Positions 4,007 through 61,645 of a stretch of DNA of 64,000 nt are shown here, piece by piece; within the stretch, counting starts at the first letter, position 1, and each line of letters opens with the position of its first letter. The stretch covers positions 75,454-139,453 of the forward strand of contig JBAZSW010000004.1 in NCBI GenBank assembly GCA_041662245.1, written 5' to 3'. A program made the translations under genes and the position numbers. Under the pieces are notes generated by a model, which was given only the letters and a program-made list of their open reading frames with translations, was not told where the DNA came from and did no database searches. This DNA is from Parcubacteria group bacterium. Lineage in GTDB: Bacteria > Patescibacteriota > Minisyncoccia > Moranbacterales > UBA9337.

Positions 4007-6346
4007 TTAATTATTTTCGCTTCCTTCTTGCTCTAATTTTATTGATAATAATCTTGATACCCCATCGTCTCCCATTGTTGCTCCATAAAGATAAGAGGCT
4101 TGACGCATAGTTTCTCGATTGTGCGTAATTGCCACAAATTGAGTGCGAGATGATAAACTTTTTAAAATTTTACTAAACCTTCGAGAATTAGCCTCATCCA
4201 AAGCCGCTTCCACTTCATCTAACATAGAAAAAGGCGGCGGATTATAAGAAATAATTGCAAAAAGCAAGGCTAATGAAGTAAGTGAACGTTCTCCGCCTGA
4301 AAGCATAGACAAATTGGAAATTTTCTTTCCAGGGGGACAAGCCACAATATCTACGCCTACTTCATCTTTATTATCATCTTCCAATTCTTCAATTTCTGCT
4401 TCTATCTTGTCTTCTTTCTCTACATCTAAACCATCTCCCTCTATCTGCTTGGTTCTCACTATTTTTTTCTTTTTTATTTTTACCAAACTAGCTTTTCCGC
4501 CACCAAAAATTATTTTAAAGTATTTAGAAAATTCGTCATTAATTTTTCCGAAAGCCTCAGCGAAAACCACATCGATTTTCTTATCCATTTCTTTAGCTAT
4601 TTCTAAAAGGGAAACAATTGCATTTTCTAAATCTTTGGATTCTTGTTGCAACGTTTCATAACGTTTGTTAGTTTCTTCATATTCTTCGATAATCAATGGA
4701 TCAATTCCACCTATTTGTTCCATCTGAACTCTCAATCGAGAAATTTTTTGTTCCGTATCATAGCGATCAATCTTTTCTCCATCAAATTTAATTTCACGAA
4801 TATCCACATTTAGATTATTCTTTGCTTCCATTATTAAATCTTCTTCTCGCACTTCAATTCTTGCTAGGGAAACTTTAGCATCATTAAATTTATCCTTAGC
4901 CGTATCTATCTTTCTTTGACTTTCTCTTAATTTTTCTTCCGCCGTAAAAAATTCCTCGCGAGCCTTAACGTCTTTTTCTACTTCTTTTCGGATTTCTGTA
5001 TTTATTTGAACAATTTTTTCTCTAGCAATTTGAATTTCTTTTCTAAGCTTTCCGATATAATCATCCATTTGAGCTAATTCTTTGTTGCCTTTTTTCTCGG
5101 CTTCAATTTGTTCATGAGTTTTTTTCCCTTCCACTTTTCCTTTATCAATATCCCCTCGGAGAATTATAATATTTTTTTCAATTTTCAAAATAAACTCTTT
5201 AACTTCCGCCAATTCTTCTAGCGTCTTAATTTTTCCAATTCTTTCACTTAGTTCTCTTTGAAAGTTATGGATATTCTCCAATTCTTCTTGAATATACTTT
5301 TTATCTACCAATATCTCTTGAATAATTCCATGCTGTCTTATTCTATCTTTTAAAATTTCCATCTTTCCCTCAGTCATCATTAGTTCTTTTTCAGAAATAT
5401 TTATTACTTTATAAATTTTATCTCTCTCAAATTTCAGTTCGTCCTGTCTTTTATTTTGTCTCATTTTTTGAGATTCACTCTCCACAAAATCATTAAGTTT
5501 ATCAACCTCTCGTTGAATCAATTGCACTTCTCTTCCCAGCTCTTCTTTTTGTCGAAAGGATTGCTCCCGCTCCGTCTGAAAAGAGTGCCACAAAAAAGCG
5601 AAATATTTTTCTTGAATTTCTCTAAGCTTACCCTTTATTTCAGCTCCTTTCTGAGCTTTATCAGCTTGTCTTTTTAAAATTTTTAAATGCGGCTCAATCT
5701 CCCCCAAAAGAGCGCTTACTTGCAAAAGGTTTTTGCTGGTGGCATCTAATTTTTTTAAAGCTCTTTCCTTCTTGATTTGATATTGTTTTACTCCCGCCGC
5801 ATCTTCTAAGATAGCTCTTCTTTCACTCACAGAAGCATTGAGCACAGCATCGCTCATTCCTTGATTGACTACACTATAACTATCCTTTCCCACTCCTGCT
5901 TTAGCTAGGATATCTGTTATATCAGTCAATCTCACTTTAGAACCATTAATTAAATATTCACTCTCTCCGCTTCTATAAATTTTTCTACGAATAATTACTT
6001 CGGTAAAATCTAGGGGAATTTTTTTGTCTGAATTATCTAAATGCAGAGATACGGAAGCATAATTTAATTTTCCTTTGTTACCACTTCCGGCGAAAATAAC
6101 ATCTTCTGATTTTTTCCCTCGCAAATTTTTCATAGATTGTTCGCCCATTACCCAGCGAATTGCATCTGCGATATTTGATTTTCCACTCCCATTGGGTCCC
6201 ACGATAGCAGTAATTCCCATTTTCCTTTTTTCGCCACTACCAACACTACCCCTAGCTTCATCAACTGAATCTGAAGGCATAAAATCTATAACTGTCTTAT
6301 TGGCAAAAGATTTAAAACCGGCTATTTCTAATTTTTTTAAATACAT
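4007..6346 (-). CDS. smc: SMC-family chromosome condensation ATPase, unusually short (779 aa), no recognisable hinge
   Basis: N-terminal FKSFA..ITAIVGPNGSGKSNIADAIRWVMGEQS; C-terminal LSGGERSLTSLALLFAI and D-loop LDEVEAALDE; coiled-coil middle. Confidence 0.8.
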   Translation of the reverse strand: MYLKKLEIAGFKSFANKTVIDFMPSDSVDEARGSVGSGEKRKMGITAIVGPNGSGKSNIADAIRWVMGEQSMKNLRGKKSEDVIFAGSGNKGKLNYASVSLHLDNSDKKIPLDFTEVIIRRKIYRSGESEYLINGSKVRLTDITDILAKAGVGKDSYSVVNQGMSDAVLNASVSERRAILEDAAGVKQYQIKKERALKKLDATSKNLLQVSALLGEIEPHLKILKRQADKAQKGAEIKGKLREIQEKYFAFLWHSFQTEREQSFRQKEELGREVQLIQREVDKLNDFVESESQKMRQNKRQDELKFERDKIYKVINISEKELMMTEGKMEILKDRIRQHGIIQEILVDKKYIQEELENIHNFQRELSERIGKIKTLEELAEVKEFILKIEKNIIILRGDIDKGKVEGKKTHEQIEAEKKGNKELAQMDDYIGKLRKEIQIAREKIVQINTEIRKEVEKDVKAREEFFTAEEKLRESQRKIDTAKDKFNDAKVSLARIEVREEDLIMEAKNNLNVDIREIKFDGEKIDRYDTEQKISRLRVQMEQIGGIDPLIIEEYEETNKRYETLQQESKDLENAIVSLLEIAKEMDKKIDVVFAEAFGKINDEFSKYFKIIFGGGKASLVKIKKKKIVRTKQIEGDGLDVEKEDKIEAEIEELEDDNKDEVGVDIVACPPGKKISNLSMLSGGERSLTSLALLFAIISYNPPPFSMLDEVEAALDEANSRRFSKILKSLSSRTQFVAITHNRETMRQASYLYGATMGDDGVSRLLSIKLEQEGSENN

Positions 6347-9720: not shown

Positions 9721-9765
9721 CATTTAGTCATTCATTTGAAATTCCAAATTTTAAATTTGAAATTC
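9721..9765 (+). repeat. dispersed AT-rich repeat copy (plus orientation), right flank of the cassette; abuts the rnhB stop
   Basis: CATTTAGTCATTCATTTGAAATTCCAAATTTTAAATTTGAAATTC. Confidence 0.6.
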
Positions 9766-9766
9766 T

Positions 9767-10552
9767 TTAAGCTTTCCATCTATCATTAATCGCATTTCTA
9801 ACAGGAGCAAATGTTTTGCGGTGAATTTTACAAGGACCATTTTGTTTTAATGCTTCAATATGAATTTTAGTGCCATAACCCTTGTGTTTGGCAAATTGAT
9901 AGGCGGGATATTCTTTATCAAACTTATTCATTATCCTATCTCGCGTAACTTTGGCAATTATAGAAGCAGCTGAGATTGATTTTACTAATTTATCACCGCT
10001 AATTATTGCTTTTTGCTCTAGCGAAAAATTAGGAATCATTTTGTCCCCATCTACTAAAATTATTATTTTTTTCTGCTCTTTAATTTGAGATTTTAAATCT
10101 CCAATTGCTTTTTTCATTGCTAGAAATGTCGCCTCCAAAACATTTATTCTATCTACCGTTTCGTGATTACAAATCCCCACTCCCACATAAAAATTTTCCA
10201 TAATAAATCCAAAAACCTCCTCTCGTCTTTTCTCGCTCAATTTTTTAGAATCTCTGATTAAATCCCACATCCTTTCCTCTCCCCCTCTCCGAGGGGGAGA
10301 TGTCCGAAGGACAGAGGGGGTGTTTCCTATTTTTTTATCATTTGAATTTGATTTGAAATTTGAAATTTGAAATTTTGAATTCCGAACCACTACCGCCGCT
10401 GCCACTACTGGTCCGGCCAGCGGTCCCCTGCCTGCCTCGTCCACACCCACCACAAAATCCCAACCTTTACCAAAAAGATCTTTTTCTAATTCAAACCTGT
10501 CAATCGCAACTGACGGGTTCAAAGTAGATTCTAATTTTACTTTATTTTTCAT
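9767..10552 (-). CDS. rnhB: ribonuclease HII carrying an in-frame insertion of about 40 aa
   Basis: VVGVDEAGRGPLAGPVVAAAVVV catalytic motif and DSKKLSEKRREE; 261 aa vs about 200 typical; extra segment RNSKFQISNFKSNSNDKKIGNTPSVLRTSPPRRGGEERMW lies between these two motifs. Confidence 0.9.
   Translation of the reverse strand: MKNKVKLESTLNPSVAIDRFELEKDLFGKGWDFVVGVDEAGRGPLAGPVVAAAVVVRNSKFQISNFKSNSNDKKIGNTPSVLRTSPPRRGGEERMWDLIRDSKKLSEKRREEVFGFIMENFYVGVGICNHETVDRINVLEATFLAMKKAIGDLKSQIKEQKKIIILVDGDKMIPNFSLEQKAIISGDKLVKSISAASIIAKVTRDRIMNKFDKEYPAYQFAKHKGYGTKIHIEALKQNGPCKIHRKTFAPVRNAINDRWKA
10265..10384 (-). repeat. about 120-nt composite element inserted in-frame in rnhB: GC-rich hairpins plus a TTGAAAT tandem-repeat module
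   Basis: coding-strand hairpins GTCC-TTCG-GGAC and CTCCCCCTC-GGA-GAGGGGGAG; TTGAAAT x4; absent from E. coli and B. subtilis RNase HII at this position. Confidence 0.7.
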
Positions 10553-11853: not shown

Positions 11854-11880
11854 GTAAATATTATTCTTTTTTCTAAAAAA

Positions 11881-11922
11881 GTGGGCAAAAGACGAAGTCT
11901 TTTGCCCACTTATTTTATTTAT
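11881..11922 (+). terminator. rho-independent terminator
   Basis: perfect 13-bp stem GTGGGCAAAAGAC / GTCTTTTGCCCAC, loop GAA, then TTATTTTATTTAT. Confidence 0.75.
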
Positions 11923-12260
11923 TACCAACTCTTCAAAAAACAAACTCACCGTCTTCTCACGGCCATGAAAAGACTGTGAATTTAATTTTCTAAATTAATA
12001 TATGATCAAATTTGTATTTATTTGTAATTTCGTATGAGTTCGCCCGCCTGCAACGCTGTAGCACTGCGAACAGGTATTTTGTAGAGAACACCCCTTTTCA
12101 ATTCAAGTATTCCATGCTACAATAATTTTGTTAAATAAAAGTTAATTCTAACTTGCAAAAGCCACAGAGCAATCGGGCGTATGAAGATAGAATAAATAAA
12201 TGTTTACGTTTTATAAAAAATTATATCTCAAACCCTGCTTTTTTAAAGTTGAGGTTTTTA

Positions 12261-12295
12261 ATTTTTCACAAAAATAAAATATTTTTGTGAAAAAT
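12261..12295. promoter_or_regulatory. perfect palindrome, 15-bp arms and 5-nt spacer, about 235 bp upstream of dnaE; candidate operator
   Basis: ATTTTTCACAAAAAT-AAAAT-ATTTTTGTGAAAAAT. Confidence 0.5.
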
Positions 12296-12450
12296 TATCC
12301 CGCCCAAAACCTTAACTAACTAATCGAGCTGGTAGAAAATAAGCCGAAGGCGATTTAGAGAACAGCCTATCTGCAAACTCCGGCTGACCCTGGGTTTTGT
12401 TGCGGGATATTTTTCGCTCTAAATTGCAAGGAATAAACCCCTCCCCAACC

Positions 12451-12493
12451 CCTGCCTACCGGCAGGCAGGCTTCCCTTGCTAAGGGCAAGGGG
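12451..12493 (+). promoter_or_regulatory. two adjacent GC-rich hairpins in the dnaE leader
   Basis: CCTGCC-TACC-GGCAGG and CCCTTGC-TAAG-GGCAAGGG, 36 nt before the dnaE ATG in a 30% GC context. Confidence 0.45.
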
Positions 12494-12528
12494 TCAAGAA
12501 GAATAAAATTATTATAATCAAAAAAATT

Positions 12529-35896: not shown

Positions 35897-38107
35897 TTAT
35901 GCAACGGGATAAATCCGACGGGGCTTCGCTTTATCTTTTTTGTCATTGGAATTTTTATCGCTATCGGCTATCCTTGCTCTTTCTAATATTTTAACAACAC
36001 CTCGCTCAGCATCCACTTCCACCAAATCTCCATCGTGCAAAACTTGCGTGGCGATTTTGGTCCCGATTATACAAGGTTTTTTAAGTTCGCGAGCCACAAT
36101 GGCAGCGTGACAAGTTATACCACCTTCATCAGTCACAAAAGCACCAGCTTTTTTCATAATAGACATGTATCTTGGATCCGTCATAGACGCAACTAATATT
36201 TCTCCTTCTTGAAAATCTTTTGCCTCTTTAATTAATTTTATAATTCTCACTTTCCCTTTTGCCTTGCCCACACGAGCAATGCTTCCTTTTATTTCATCTA
36301 AACTATATTTTTTATTTCTTGTCTTGTCGATTTCATCTAATATTTTACCTGACTTATTTTGAGAAATAGTTTCTATTCCTTCTTTAGAATATTTGCAAAA
36401 GAAAAAATCTTTGCGTTTTAAATAATTATTAGGTAGCTCACCTGAATTTATAAAAGCATCAAGTTCCTCCCCGCTTAGATATTCTAAAGAATCTTTTTCA
36501 ATATTTTTTTCTTCTTCTATTTTATTCAACAATTCTCTTTCCAAAGTTATTCCATCTCTATGAATATTTTCATATCTTTTTCTTGTTTCTATACACAAAT
36601 CTTTTGTTTCCTGACTCAAGTCATCGAGATATTCTGGAGCATAAACTGATACCATAATAATAGCAAACAATTCTTGTATAAAGTTATGAAGTTTTTTAAT
36701 AGATTTTGTCAGATCGACCTGATTATTTTTGAAAAACTCTTCAGCTTCTAAAAGTTTTTTATTATTTTTTGCAATAAATCTTTTATAGTCATCAATATCA
36801 TTTTTTTGAAAATATGCCTTTGGGATTCCCTTATAATCAACTACCGGCAAAAAATGATAAAATATTCCATTTTCCATCAGAGAATACCAAGGATTTGTCA
36901 TGTAATTAGTCACTCTTTCAAAACTGTCACCAAAAACTTCTCTTGCTATAACAGAAGCAATTAATATAGTGTAATCCCTCTGATGTTTTTCATAGATTAA
37001 ATTTTCTTTCTCTACATACTTCATTAAAGTCGTTATCGGTCGACTTTGGGTGATATAAAATTTTCCACCTTCCTGCGCCCATTCGATATCGCAGGGAAAG
37101 CTGTAATGGTTTTCGATTTTGATGATTAAATCTGAAAGTTCGATAATTTCTTTTTCGTTTAATACTTGAGAAGAAGCTTGAGGTTCAGGGATATCTCGCC
37201 ACTCGTTGGCTGAGATTTCTCCACTTCCAAATCTTTGAGTACAAAGATTTGTTCGGTCGAAATGACATGCTCTATATAATCCTCTGTTTTGCGTGCTGAC
37301 ATTAATATCAACAATCGCTTCTCTAATTCTTAATTCATCATTCTTGATTCCCAACTCCTCATTCTTAATTCTTAATTCATAATTCTTAATTCCAGTCTTA
37401 TCCACCACATAACTGTCCGGGGTAACTGATCCCGATACAATTGCTTCGCCAAGTCCAAAGCCTGCTTCAATGATAAGCTGGTTATAATCTTGGGTCACTG
37501 GATGCACCGAAAAAGCGATACCTGATTTCTCAGATTGAATCATTTTTTGCACCACCACTGCTACCGATATTTTCTGCTTGTGCAATTCTTTTTCAAAACG
37601 ATAGAAAATGGCCCGCGAAGTGAAAAGCGATGCCCAGCATTTTTGGACATTTTTTAATAAATCTTTTTCTGTTGTATTAAGATAAGAATTAAGTTGTCCC
37701 GCCCAAGCCGCCTCAGCTCCGTCTTCAGCGGTGGCACTGGATCTTACAGCAACAAACTCTGCGTCTAGTTTTTTAAATTCTTTTTCAACTTCTTTCTCAA
37801 TCTCTACTGGAATTTTTGCTCCAAGAATTAAAGCTTGGATTTTTTCTGACGCTTTTTCAACCGTATGCATTTTTTGCGTATCCACTGTGTCAAGGATAGC
37901 GGAAATTTCCACATTTAAATCAGTTATTTCTAAAAATTTTTCAAAAGCCCCAGCAAGTACCACAAAACCCGAAGGAACTGGATTGCTAGCAGACTTGTCC
38001 GCCGAAGCTTTAGCGAAGGCGGAAGTCATTTCGCCAAGGGACGCTCCCTTGCCTCCGGCAATCAGAACATCGTTCTTATCTAATTCTTTAAAATTTTTAG
38101 TAAACAT
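35897..38107 (-). CDS. PEP-utilising-enzyme family protein: PPDK-type ATP-grasp N-terminus plus C-terminal phospho-His swivel domain; no PEP/pyruvate TIM-barrel (PEP synthase-like or rifampin phosphotransferase-like architecture)
   Basis: N-term GGKGASLGEM; C-term GGITCHAAIVARELKKPCIIGT; contains a 21-nt tandem repeat encoding ELRIKNE / ELGIKND / ELRIRE. Confidence 0.75.
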   Translation of the reverse strand: MFTKNFKELDKNDVLIAGGKGASLGEMTSAFAKASADKSASNPVPSGFVVLAGAFEKFLEITDLNVEISAILDTVDTQKMHTVEKASEKIQALILGAKIPVEIEKEVEKEFKKLDAEFVAVRSSATAEDGAEAAWAGQLNSYLNTTEKDLLKNVQKCWASLFTSRAIFYRFEKELHKQKISVAVVVQKMIQSEKSGIAFSVHPVTQDYNQLIIEAGFGLGEAIVSGSVTPDSYVVDKTGIKNYELRIKNEELGIKNDELRIREAIVDINVSTQNRGLYRACHFDRTNLCTQRFGSGEISANEWRDIPEPQASSQVLNEKEIIELSDLIIKIENHYSFPCDIEWAQEGGKFYITQSRPITTLMKYVEKENLIYEKHQRDYTILIASVIAREVFGDSFERVTNYMTNPWYSLMENGIFYHFLPVVDYKGIPKAYFQKNDIDDYKRFIAKNNKKLLEAEEFFKNNQVDLTKSIKKLHNFIQELFAIIMVSVYAPEYLDDLSQETKDLCIETRKRYENIHRDGITLERELLNKIEEEKNIEKDSLEYLSGEELDAFINSGELPNNYLKRKDFFFCKYSKEGIETISQNKSGKILDEIDKTRNKKYSLDEIKGSIARVGKAKGKVRIIKLIKEAKDFQEGEILVASMTDPRYMSIMKKAGAFVTDEGGITCHAAIVARELKKPCIIGTKIATQVLHDGDLVEVDAERGVVKILERARIADSDKNSNDKKDKAKPRRIYPVA
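37315..37395 (-). repeat. tandem repeat of about 21 nt (about 3.5 units) inside the PEP-utilising enzyme gene
   Basis: plus strand shows repeated ATTCTTAATTC; protein shows heptad units ELRIKNE-ELGIKND-ELRIRE. Confidence 0.6.
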
Positions 38108-51526: not shown

Positions 51527-51588
51527 CATTAAGTCATTATTGAATTATAAATTCATTCGAAATTCAAAATTGGAAATTCAAAATTTAA
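51527..51588 (+). repeat. dispersed AT-rich repeat copy
   Basis: CATTAAGTCATT...AAATTCATTCGAAATTCAAAATTGGAAATTCAAAATTT. Confidence 0.6.
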
Positions 51589-58830: not shown

Positions 58831-58976
58831 TTTAATTTTAAATTTGAAATTTAGATTCAAATTCTAATTTATTAATTTTTCAAATATTTAAAATTTATTT
58901 TCTGAATTATTTTTTAACCTTATAATTTTAATCATTAAAAATTCATTTGAAATTCAAAATTTGAAATTTGAAATTT
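58831..58976. repeat. two copies of the dispersed AT-rich repeat (58831-58870 and 58941-58976)
   Basis: AATTCATTTGAAATTCAAAATTTGAAATTTGAAATTT and AAATTTGAAATTTAGATTCAAATTC. Confidence 0.6.
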
Positions 58977-61497: not shown

Positions 61498-61537
61498 AAA
61501 AAATTTTGAATTTCAAATTTTGAATTTTGATTCAAGT
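61498..61537 (-). repeat. dispersed AT-rich repeat copy (minus orientation)
   Basis: reverse complement GACTTGAATCAAAATTCAAAATTTGAAATTCAAAATTTT. Confidence 0.55.
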
Positions 61538-61600: not shown

Positions 61601-61645
61601 ATCATTATTCCATTGGAAATTCATTCAAAATTTAAAATTTAAATA
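61601..61645 (+). repeat. dispersed AT-rich repeat copy (plus orientation) ending 5 nt before the cysS ATG
   Basis: TCATTATTCCATTGGAAATTCATTCAAAATTTAAAATTTAAAT. Confidence 0.55.

Follow-up and report, generated by a model that had tools for sequence, protein, structure and literature searches.

A GC-rich palindromic module and a heptamer array in frame within a variable loop of RNase HII from a Parcubacteria group bacterium

Introduction

Rickettsia palindromic elements (RPEs) are selfish palindromic DNA that lies in frame within protein-coding genes (Ogata et al., 2000; PMC10969869). Here, we describe DNA of this already known kind, in a new variant, within rnhB, the gene for ribonuclease HII (RNase HII), on a 64,000-nucleotide stretch of contig JBAZSW010000004.1 from a Parcubacteria group bacterium (the window; GC content about 32%, position 1 being its first letter). 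The rnhB insert consists of an AT-rich heptamer array and a 42-nt GC-rich module with two hairpins. Comparison with orthologous genes and with copies of the module elsewhere leads us to consider it likely that a permissive, disordered loop of RNase HII holds two independent repeats, namely a slippage microsatellite and a selfish palindromic module. The original prediction, made from the letters of the window, had proposed that both repeats were joined in one composite insertion with a common mobilization mechanism.

Several other groups of repeats invite comparison. Mobile GC-rich hairpins occur in the AT-rich mitochondrial genomes of fungi, where GC clusters, double-hairpin elements and 'byp' elements are also found in coding genes. 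In cyanobacteria, Elhai and coworkers are said to have described in 2008 hairpins of about 20–27 nt (SDR4–6) that are inserted precisely in other repeats, including heptamer arrays; the SDRs reportedly coexist with dispersed heptanucleotide (STRR) arrays, their mobilization machinery being, by the same account, unknown. REP and REPIN sequences are extragenic, have a tetranucleotide tag (GTAG or CGTC) at one of their ends and occur in genomes with RAYT transposase genes (PMC3116915, PMC3733652). The intergenic repeats of the Rhizobiaceae include RIMEs, Sm-repeats and the AB and C palindromes (PMC2573895).

Results and discussion

The host gene and its variable loop

The rnhB product carries a PF01351 domain (Pfam, E = 1e-33), matches RNase HII structures (PDB search, E = 3e-40), retains the DEAGRG and DSK motifs, which are unchanged across an alignment of 30 orthologues, and adopts the RNase H fold in its AlphaFold model, so that its membership of RNase HII is clear. 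The best Foldseek matches of the model are RNase HII of Thermotoga maritima and of Escherichia coli; the match to 3o3f has E = 5e-18. The protein is 100% identical to the record 'MAG: ribonuclease HII [Parcubacteria group bacterium]' (MAG, metagenome-assembled genome) and its nearest relatives belong to Candidatus Moranbacteria.

9767–10552, minus strand: rnhB (RNase HII), 261 amino acids, from the open reading frame (ORF) call and the Pfam, PDB and Foldseek matches
10265–10384, minus strand: hypervariable loop, residues R57–W96, as delimited in the original prediction and in agreement with the translation

The loop sequence is RNSKFQISNFKSNSNDKKIGNTPSVLRTSPPRRGGEERMW, residues 57–96, and lies between DEAGRG and DSKKLSEKRRE. 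Read on the coding strand, its DNA begins with CGG, an array of AATTTCA-type heptamers and AATGATAAAAAAATAGGAAAC, continues with ACCCCCTCT, the hairpin GTCC-TTC-GGAC, a single A and the hairpin TCTCCCCCTC-GGA-GAGGGGGAGA, and closes with GGAAAGG and then ATGTGG. Among the 30 aligned orthologues the segment from GPVVAxAV to WDLIKDSKKL ranges from 13–14 to more than 50 residues and differs in content as well as in length; a second variable site follows LKSQIKN. The shortest Moranbacteria orthologues hold 14 residues at the loop (LEEREFNEEEKKLW), and the excess in the window gene is therefore about 26 residues, not the 40 that had been counted as extra, although the position and translation of that segment were correct. 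Mapping onto a known structure, which had been proposed as a check, gives an excess of about 36 residues over T. maritima RNase HII: query residues 58–96 replace chain residues 37–39 and the core matches.

In the AlphaFold2 model the pLDDT falls below 50 at residues 60–86, which are flanked by a strand (49–56) and a helix (90–100), and the remaining residues can be superposed on RNase HII of T. maritima and of E. coli. Because of this low score between a strand and a helix, with a core that fits known RNase HII, the prediction for the insert is a disordered loop at the protein surface, a short way upstream of the DSK motif.

Even within a 90%-identity cluster, sequences may differ by hairpin 1, the entire array or a 33-nt AT repeat (hairpin 1 and the array between P0028 and P0257; 33 nt between P0258 and P0259), and the locus thus changes quickly. 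Short-loop alleles are scattered among long-loop alleles in a neighbour-joining (NJ) tree of 207 well-aligned columns, which is indicative only.

At the second site, six orthologues (P0040, P0041, P0052, P0053, P0057 and P0059) translate other families of GC palindromes after LKSQIKN, giving peptides such as CHSRESGNL...WISVFTGMT, LDSRFRGNDK and PPEADQSRTGN. Kindred peptides occur in an IleRS-like ORF of locus L040 (CHSREGGNP) and in a ComEC-like ORF of locus L056 (PPEADSPLL).

Structure of the GC-rich module and its gain or loss in rnhB

10280–10321, minus strand: GC-rich module, 42 nt, encoding T78–G91 (TPSVLRTSPPRRGG), delimited by comparison of filled and empty sites
10301–10313, minus strand: slot hairpin (hairpin 1), TGTCC-TTC-GGACA on the coding strand, from DNA folding
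10278–10300, minus strand: main hairpin (hairpin 2), TCTCCCCCTC-GGA-GAGGGGGAGA, 10 bp with a triloop, from DNA folding

The module is laid out as a C-rich tail, ACCCCCTCT, followed by the slot hairpin and the main hairpin. Hairpin 1 is an 11-nt unit, GTCC-TTC-GGAC, with a triloop; its stem has 5 bp when the flanking T-A pair is included. Both hairpins had been recognized in the original prediction; its notation GTCC-TTCG-GGAC counts one G twice, and the longer stem has 10 bp, not nine. A UNCG tetraloop was considered for hairpin 1 and discarded when the loop was recounted as a triloop, TNC. The GC-rich 9-mer CTCCCCCTC and its complement are confined to this spot in the 64 kb (0.17 expected). 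The 5' sequence CCCCCTCT has its complement, AGAGGGGG, in the 3' arm; the pairing of the two, however, overlaps the main hairpin.

Insertion polymorphism is evident in comparison with related genes. Relative to the rnhB loci L005 and L008, the window carries a clean addition of 42 nt (14 codons) between AAY and GAR, and P0002 and P0003, which are 79% and 76% identical, have the heptamer array without the GC module. Relative to close orthologues the segment is thus an insertion, as had been claimed, and it is not common to all RNase HII orthologues of the clade. In L105 the module measures 33 nt, the slot being CAA in place of the GTCCTTCGGACA of the window, and a compensatory change is found in the main stem; both lengths are multiples of three. 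The slot of the Uhrbacteria copies described below is reduced to 2 nt (AA, AC or GA). Compensatory variants of the main stem are TCTCCCCCTT/AAGGGGGAGA in L105 and TCCTCCCCTT/AAGGGGAGGA in L003, and in Sinorhizobium meliloti hairpin 1 reads GGCC-TGCC-GGCC, a compensatory T-A to G-C change.

The 42-nt module is nearly identical in rnhB of L001, L002 and L050, although the proteins are only about 57% identical, and likewise in L106. Module-bearing rnhB genes fall into three separate lineages of the NJ tree, each with module-free sisters. An old insertion with repeated loss and an allelic exchange between lineages are both plausible, and homologous recombination between lineages has probably helped to shape the patchy distribution among orthologues.

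The module family in other bacteria

A scan of the genome collection with a 21-mer of hairpin 2 found 25 loci. A single Uhrbacteria MAG (JACPJN01) accounts for seven of them and a Rhizobium MAG for four; others are in Andersenbacteria, Saccharibacteria and Patescibacteria and in low-GC gammaproteobacterial and alphaproteobacterial MAGs. Many of these copies share ACCCCCTCT-NN-CTCCCCCTC-GGA-GAGGGGGAG, though the flanks lay outside the query. A 22-mer spanning hairpin 1 was present in 72 copies in metagenome contigs of 29–61% GC, with a sharp 5' boundary and two main 3' variants. The GC part therefore belongs to a dispersed family and behaves as mobile DNA, in line with the mobilization that the original prediction had suggested.

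Most copies lie within genes. Inside open frames of at least 100 codons are 51 of the 66 distinct copies (77%), and none of the 66 splits a gene. Copies use either orientation and five of the six frames (17 ORF copies in the same and 29 in the opposite orientation to the host gene), and five different peptides arise from the differing frames and orientations; those from different frames are unrelated (TPSVLRTSPPQRGGE, DPLCPSDISPSMGR, SPHRGGDVRRTEGV and LPIEGEMSAGQRGS). The host genes include those of an IleRS-like class I aminoacyl-tRNA synthetase, ComEC, TilS, LeuC, AlaRS, PPDK and a glycosyltransferase (GT1). The AlaRS host comes from the Bacteroidaceae/Prevotellaceae; the insert is missing from orthologues of 90% identity, and here, too, the loop varies. 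Since the copies sit in many unrelated genes of very distant bacteria, the module looks selfish rather than part of the enzyme.

In Bacteroidales AlaRS (P0121–P0217) a hypervariable loop between VKLGDW and SEFVGYDYTE gathers hairpin-derived peptides, and the loop of P0172 contains a tandem repeat of seven residues (21 nt), GQRTTDN, which mirrors the situation of rnhB in another phylum and another gene.

In the Rhizobiaceae, BLAST with a 55-nt type-B query matched 57 plasmids, the copies being 83–90% identical and covering up to 96% of the query. These copies show the same arrangement of tail, slot hairpin and main hairpin, and no feature lies beneath the matches in those listed records that carry annotation. 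On a plasmid of Rhizobium sp. ACO-34A (L103), two inverted copies (401–455 and about 560–600) stand about 110 nt apart between ABC-transporter and dehydrogenase genes, an arrangement resembling a MITE (a miniature transposable element bounded by inverted repeats) with the module as terminal inverted repeat. The module had no match in the phage collection.

Protein-level searches returned little. With the 40-residue insert as query, phmmer gave two matches among 1.8 billion representatives, the match of about 15 residues being too short for a database of this size, and a concatenated 69-residue query of module peptides gave no candidates. Module cores are open in 4.8 of six frames, against 3.8 in shuffled sequences, a modest difference that is not strong evidence.

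These distributions bear on three other explanations. The segment might be an assembly artefact, or it might be removed before or during translation by intron-like excision or by ribosomal bypass as in the yeast mitochondrial byps. Assemblies do often break in the repeats, and GC-rich hairpins within a genome rich in AT recall the GC clusters and byps of mitochondria. The identical RNase HII protein is nevertheless on record from NCBI, JGI and Logan, and the GC module occupies the same rnhB site in independent assemblies (L001/L069, L002, L050, L094 and L106); the rnhB insert is therefore no assembly chimera, a possibility that the original prediction had itself raised. Excision or bypass would require neither a kept frame nor the avoidance of stop codons, whereas no genic copy departs from the frame and the module measures 33 or 42 nt, each a multiple of three. 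We regard this explanation as extremely improbable.

Gene calls and contigs often stop inside inserts, as at the contig end of L094, which falls within the module, and in P0255/P0256 and P0262/P0265, the last two being overlapping halves; in one MAG, two partial rnhB halves overlap at the second site. The repeats seem to break metagenome assemblies.

A second explanation takes the hairpins as selected nucleic-acid structures, either an mRNA element for pausing or stability or a DNA signal for recombination or replication, such as a triplex or cruciform; they would then be retained for their function and would not be selfish. In both hairpins the stem is conserved and compensatory changes occur, the two fold as stable stems side by side, and a three-arm design, with a C-rich tail that is direct or mirror and an inverted G-rich arm, would permit alternative hairpins or a Py-Pu-Py triplex. 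The fold z-scores are modest (−1.3 to −2.4), however, close orthologues lack the module, and copies stand in both orientations, in unrelated genes and in intergenic DNA, which makes a single RNA-level role unlikely. In Rfam, no match in the window reached the gathering threshold, the insert had none up to E = 5 and the related loci gave no relevant match; ARAGORN found no tRNA or tmRNA. Template-switch correction can keep a palindrome complementary without selection, so that the conserved stems could also come from self-correction of the palindrome. On balance a selected structure appears unlikely, and the conserved stems leave room for a structural constraint, whether for mobilization or for function.

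Thirdly, the peptide might be adaptive, a new loop for interaction or regulation that RNase HII of this clade has gained. Most Moranbacteria orthologues have an expanded loop, and of the seven nucleotide differences seen among the module copies of rnhB five are synonymous. All seven lie outside the stems, and the synonymous sites coincide with unpaired hairpin positions, so that this pattern does not discriminate. Against adaptation stand the wide variation in content and length among near relatives, the scatter of short forms over the tree, the unrelated peptides that the same DNA gives in other genes and the predicted disorder of the segment; we think an adaptive peptide quite unlikely.

The heptamer array

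10337–10381, minus strand: heptamer array in rnhB, coding-strand unit AATTTCA, encoding N58–D72 (NSKFQISNFKSNSND), from Tandem Repeats Finder (TRF) and unit counts
9734–9764: intergenic array of the same unit immediately 3' of the rnhB stop codon
9019–9051, 51555–51585, 58834–58852, 58945–58976, 61502–61530 and 61623–61643: similar intergenic arrays
37319–37392, minus strand: second in-frame array, unit TTCTTAA, about ten units, in a PPDK_N/PEP-utilizers gene (35897–38107)

Exact TTGAAAT units begin at 10353, 10360 and 10367 on the plus strand (10353–10373) and are flanked by degenerate units; the repeat that the original prediction had seen is real, with three exact units where it counted four. 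TRF reports period 7 at 10340–10381 with 5.6–6.5 copies. The unit matches the intergenic arrays of the same genome, as had been noted, and the double unit TTGAAATTTGAAAT, with at most one mismatch, has seven matches in the window against 0.85 expected. The TTCTTAA array in the PPDK_N/PEP-utilizers gene translates as GIKNYELRIKNEELGIKNDELRIRE.

At the DNA level the rnhB arrays form a graded series from L108 through L008 and L005 to the window.

L108 (short loop): AAT TCA GAA TTC AAT GAT, with the two-unit proto-repeat AATTCAGAATTCAATGAT
L008: AATTTCAAATCAATTTTAAATGAC
L005: as L008 plus exactly 21 nt (three units, seven residues)
Window: array with the same ends, AAT TCA ... AAT GAT

The array shows the features of a slippage repeat, with head-to-tail units, copy-number variation among relatives and a local proto-repeat, and the 21-nt step together with the graded series points to slippage at this site.

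The relation between the array and the module decides whether the insert is one element or two. The proposal of one composite element, inserted as a unit by one mechanism, draws on the adjacency of the parts, seen in four to five further rnhB orthologues besides that of the window, and on other small hairpins, four different ones, that are embedded in the rnhB arrays of P0005, P0011, P0022 and P0048. Both repeat classes are indeed present; they do not, however, travel together. The array occurs without the module in P0002, P0003 and many other orthologues, the module occurs in more than 90 places without heptamers, and arrays adjoin the module in only four of 92 distinct copies (two of the four being rnhB) against seven of 300 in the background, so that 88 copies have no array, a proportion no different from background. 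The window holds no second composite. Moreover, the boundaries of the array fit the proto-repeat that is already there in the short-loop orthologue L108, and with these conserved boundaries and the 21-nt step the array could be derived on site, which speaks against a common mobilization mechanism. A composite element is therefore very improbable.

A period-7 array in a coding region might also make rnhB a phase-variable contingency gene that tunes ribonucleotide repair and mutation rate: a change of one unit forces a frameshift, which would turn RNase HII off or on, arrays are polymorphic among close relatives, and similar arrays lie in intergenic DNA upstream of genes. Every rnhB retrieved is nevertheless in frame, with no out-of-frame allele (retrieval by protein homology being biased against frameshifts), contig ends or gaps account for the truncated proteins, and the arrays are short (3–6 units) and imperfect. 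We rate this explanation as highly improbable.

On the minus-strand reading, the arrays at 9766–9730, 58975–58941, 51585–51555 and 61643–61623 tend to end in AATGAAT, and TAATGA or a sequence resembling TGnTATAAT follows within about 20 nt, upstream of minus-strand genes. An association of the arrays with a promoter or UP element is conceivable; a scan for promoter and terminator consensus sequences around the window arrays gave counts at chance level.

Nested hairpins

A 20-nt hairpin, CCTGCCTACCGGCAGGCAGG, lies within the element of L080, and the same element is uninterrupted in L076, L086 and L097. The hairpin recurs at 12451–12470 of the window, at the same relative position as in L080, and inside the rnhB heptamer array of P0005.

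12426–12500: the window's one further GC-rich hairpin island, in intergenic DNA upstream of dnaE

This island consists of CCCTTGC-TAAGG-GCAAGGG, the 20-nt slot hairpin CCTGCCTACCGGCAGGCAGG and a C/G-rich tail, and resembles the rnhB module in design, not in sequence. From the nested and empty slots of CCTGCCTACCGGCAGGCAGG we deduce a general design of C-rich tail, optional slot hairpin and main hairpin, the slot in the window rnhB being occupied by GTCCTTCGGACA. Because different hairpins sit in the rnhB arrays, the array may be a favoured landing site for small hairpins.

Origin of the insert

The reading that we favour, of two independent repeats in a permissive disordered loop, would proceed as follows. 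The heptamer microsatellite (AATTTCA)n would have grown on site by replication slippage from a two-unit proto-repeat, and within a reading frame only length changes that total a multiple of 3 nt would survive. The 42-nt, stop-free palindromic module would be one copy of a non-autonomous mobile family with hosts in Patescibacteria, Bacteroidales, Rhizobiaceae and other lineages. Copies would last only where the frame is kept and the loop is structurally permissive, so that they would appear as in-frame peptide insertions with a sequence set by frame and orientation. Spread would take place at the DNA level through hairpin-forming single strands, by a trans-acting enzyme or by template switching, and the ribosome would read through both repeats. 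In all likelihood the insert is selfish DNA that is neutral or slightly deleterious and plays no part in catalysis by RNase HII.

Several points weigh against this reading. Each genome has a preferred unit that is common to several sites: AATTTCA is found in the window rnhB and the intergenic arrays, and in L007 an identical (AATTTCG)x4 stands at 816–854 and 10193–10223, in rnhB and in a MiaB-like radical-SAM gene. Genome-specific units common to different genes are beyond pure local slippage. The invariant stems and the compensatory and synonymous changes could reflect selection on structure or peptide. The common site in rnhB and the mostly GGA loop fit one old insertion, with subsequent losses or recombination, better than repeated homing, and the mobility of the module at rnhB itself is therefore not established as recent. 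There is a single module copy in the window, hairpin and GC-island scans having found no other. No target-site duplication is visible at filled versus empty sites in rnhB or L080, where the junctions are ambiguous by 1–3 nt, and no transposase or parent element turned up, a parent insertion sequence (IS) and a RAYT gene not having been searched for; the case for mobility therefore rests on distribution and on the comparison of filled and empty sites.

A wider and more doubtful extension, possible but in our view tentative, is an undescribed cross-phylum superfamily of nested nano-elements of 20–55 nt, built of a C-rich tail, an exchangeable slot hairpin and a main hairpin, that would still be actively copied frame-neutrally into coding DNA, perhaps via hairpin-primed template switching and with no dedicated transposase, and for which AT-rich arrays would serve as landing pads. 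If it exists, such a superfamily would be a major general source of loop insertions in the proteins of streamlined Patescibacteria and Bacteroidales.

Comparison with described repeats

The module resembles RPEs as a palindromic, non-autonomous repeat found in many unrelated housekeeping genes without breaking the frame, whose added peptide fits the protein fold, which has genic and intergenic copies and for which there is no associated transposase. As in RPEs, several unrelated ORFs are occupied with the frame preserved. It differs in size, in range and in coding: RPEs measure about 100–150 bp, are confined to Rickettsia and have one conserved peptide and frame per family, whereas the module family measures 33–55 nt (33–42 nt in rnhB), is GC-rich in an AT-rich host, yields five peptides from its two orientations and five frames, is about 85–100% identical across phyla and is built of nested sub-hairpins.

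The SDRs share with the present elements the precise placement of a hairpin of about 20–27 nt inside another repeat, here CCTGCCTACCGGCAGGCAGG in L080 and in the P0005 array; the phylum and the sequences are different, and SDRs are reportedly mainly non-coding, whereas most module copies lie in ORFs. Like REP sequences, the module is a short GC-rich imperfect palindrome that can be present many times in a genome (seven copies in the Uhrbacteria MAG) and sometimes in inverted pairs, as in L103; unlike them it is not extragenic, 77% of the distinct copies being in open frames, and its ends, (A/G/C)ACCCCCTCT and GGGGAGAGG, carry no GTAG or CGTC tag. To the repeats of the Rhizobiaceae it is linked by direct sequence similarity to the plasmid copies, the records of which have no repeat annotation. 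Mitochondrial GC clusters, in turn, belong to eukaryotic organelles, and ribosomes skip the byps; because the frame is conserved in its genic copies, the module would be read through.

A literature search for palindromic, MITE-like or in-frame elements of the candidate phyla radiation (CPR) found nothing specific, and a string search of the literature with the sequences and peptides gave irrelevant matches only. The cross-phylum conservation and the nano-scale modularity thus appear to be undescribed in the literature searched. A sequence of about 45 nt is nearly identical across Patescibacteria, Bacteroidales and Rhizobiaceae, with most copies tolerated within essential genes, and extends the picture of selfish DNA in coding regions that was drawn for Rickettsia both to far smaller units and to a far broader range of hosts. 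In proteins of CPR/Patescibacteria and Bacteroidales, many 'extra' loop residues would then be translated repeat DNA and not evolved protein features, with consequences for annotation, alignment, structure prediction and phylogenetics in these groups. Filled and empty sites, together with the nested copies, make the inter-phylum spread of non-coding mini-elements directly testable.

Other palindromes

Upstream of dnaE, the window has 675 nt without a gene (11854–12528), which contain the GC-rich hairpins (12451–12492), a perfect 18-bp AT palindrome (12259–12297) and a terminator-like hairpin (11879–11911). This region has no Rfam, tRNA or tmRNA match and could be an unrecognized RNA gene or repeat debris. 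In L002, the palindrome CCCCCTT-TTCTA-AAGGGGG (5988–6006) stands in frame in the gene for the DNA polymerase III alpha subunit, another essential gene, where it is read as SPFRKGGLNASERAFKGD.

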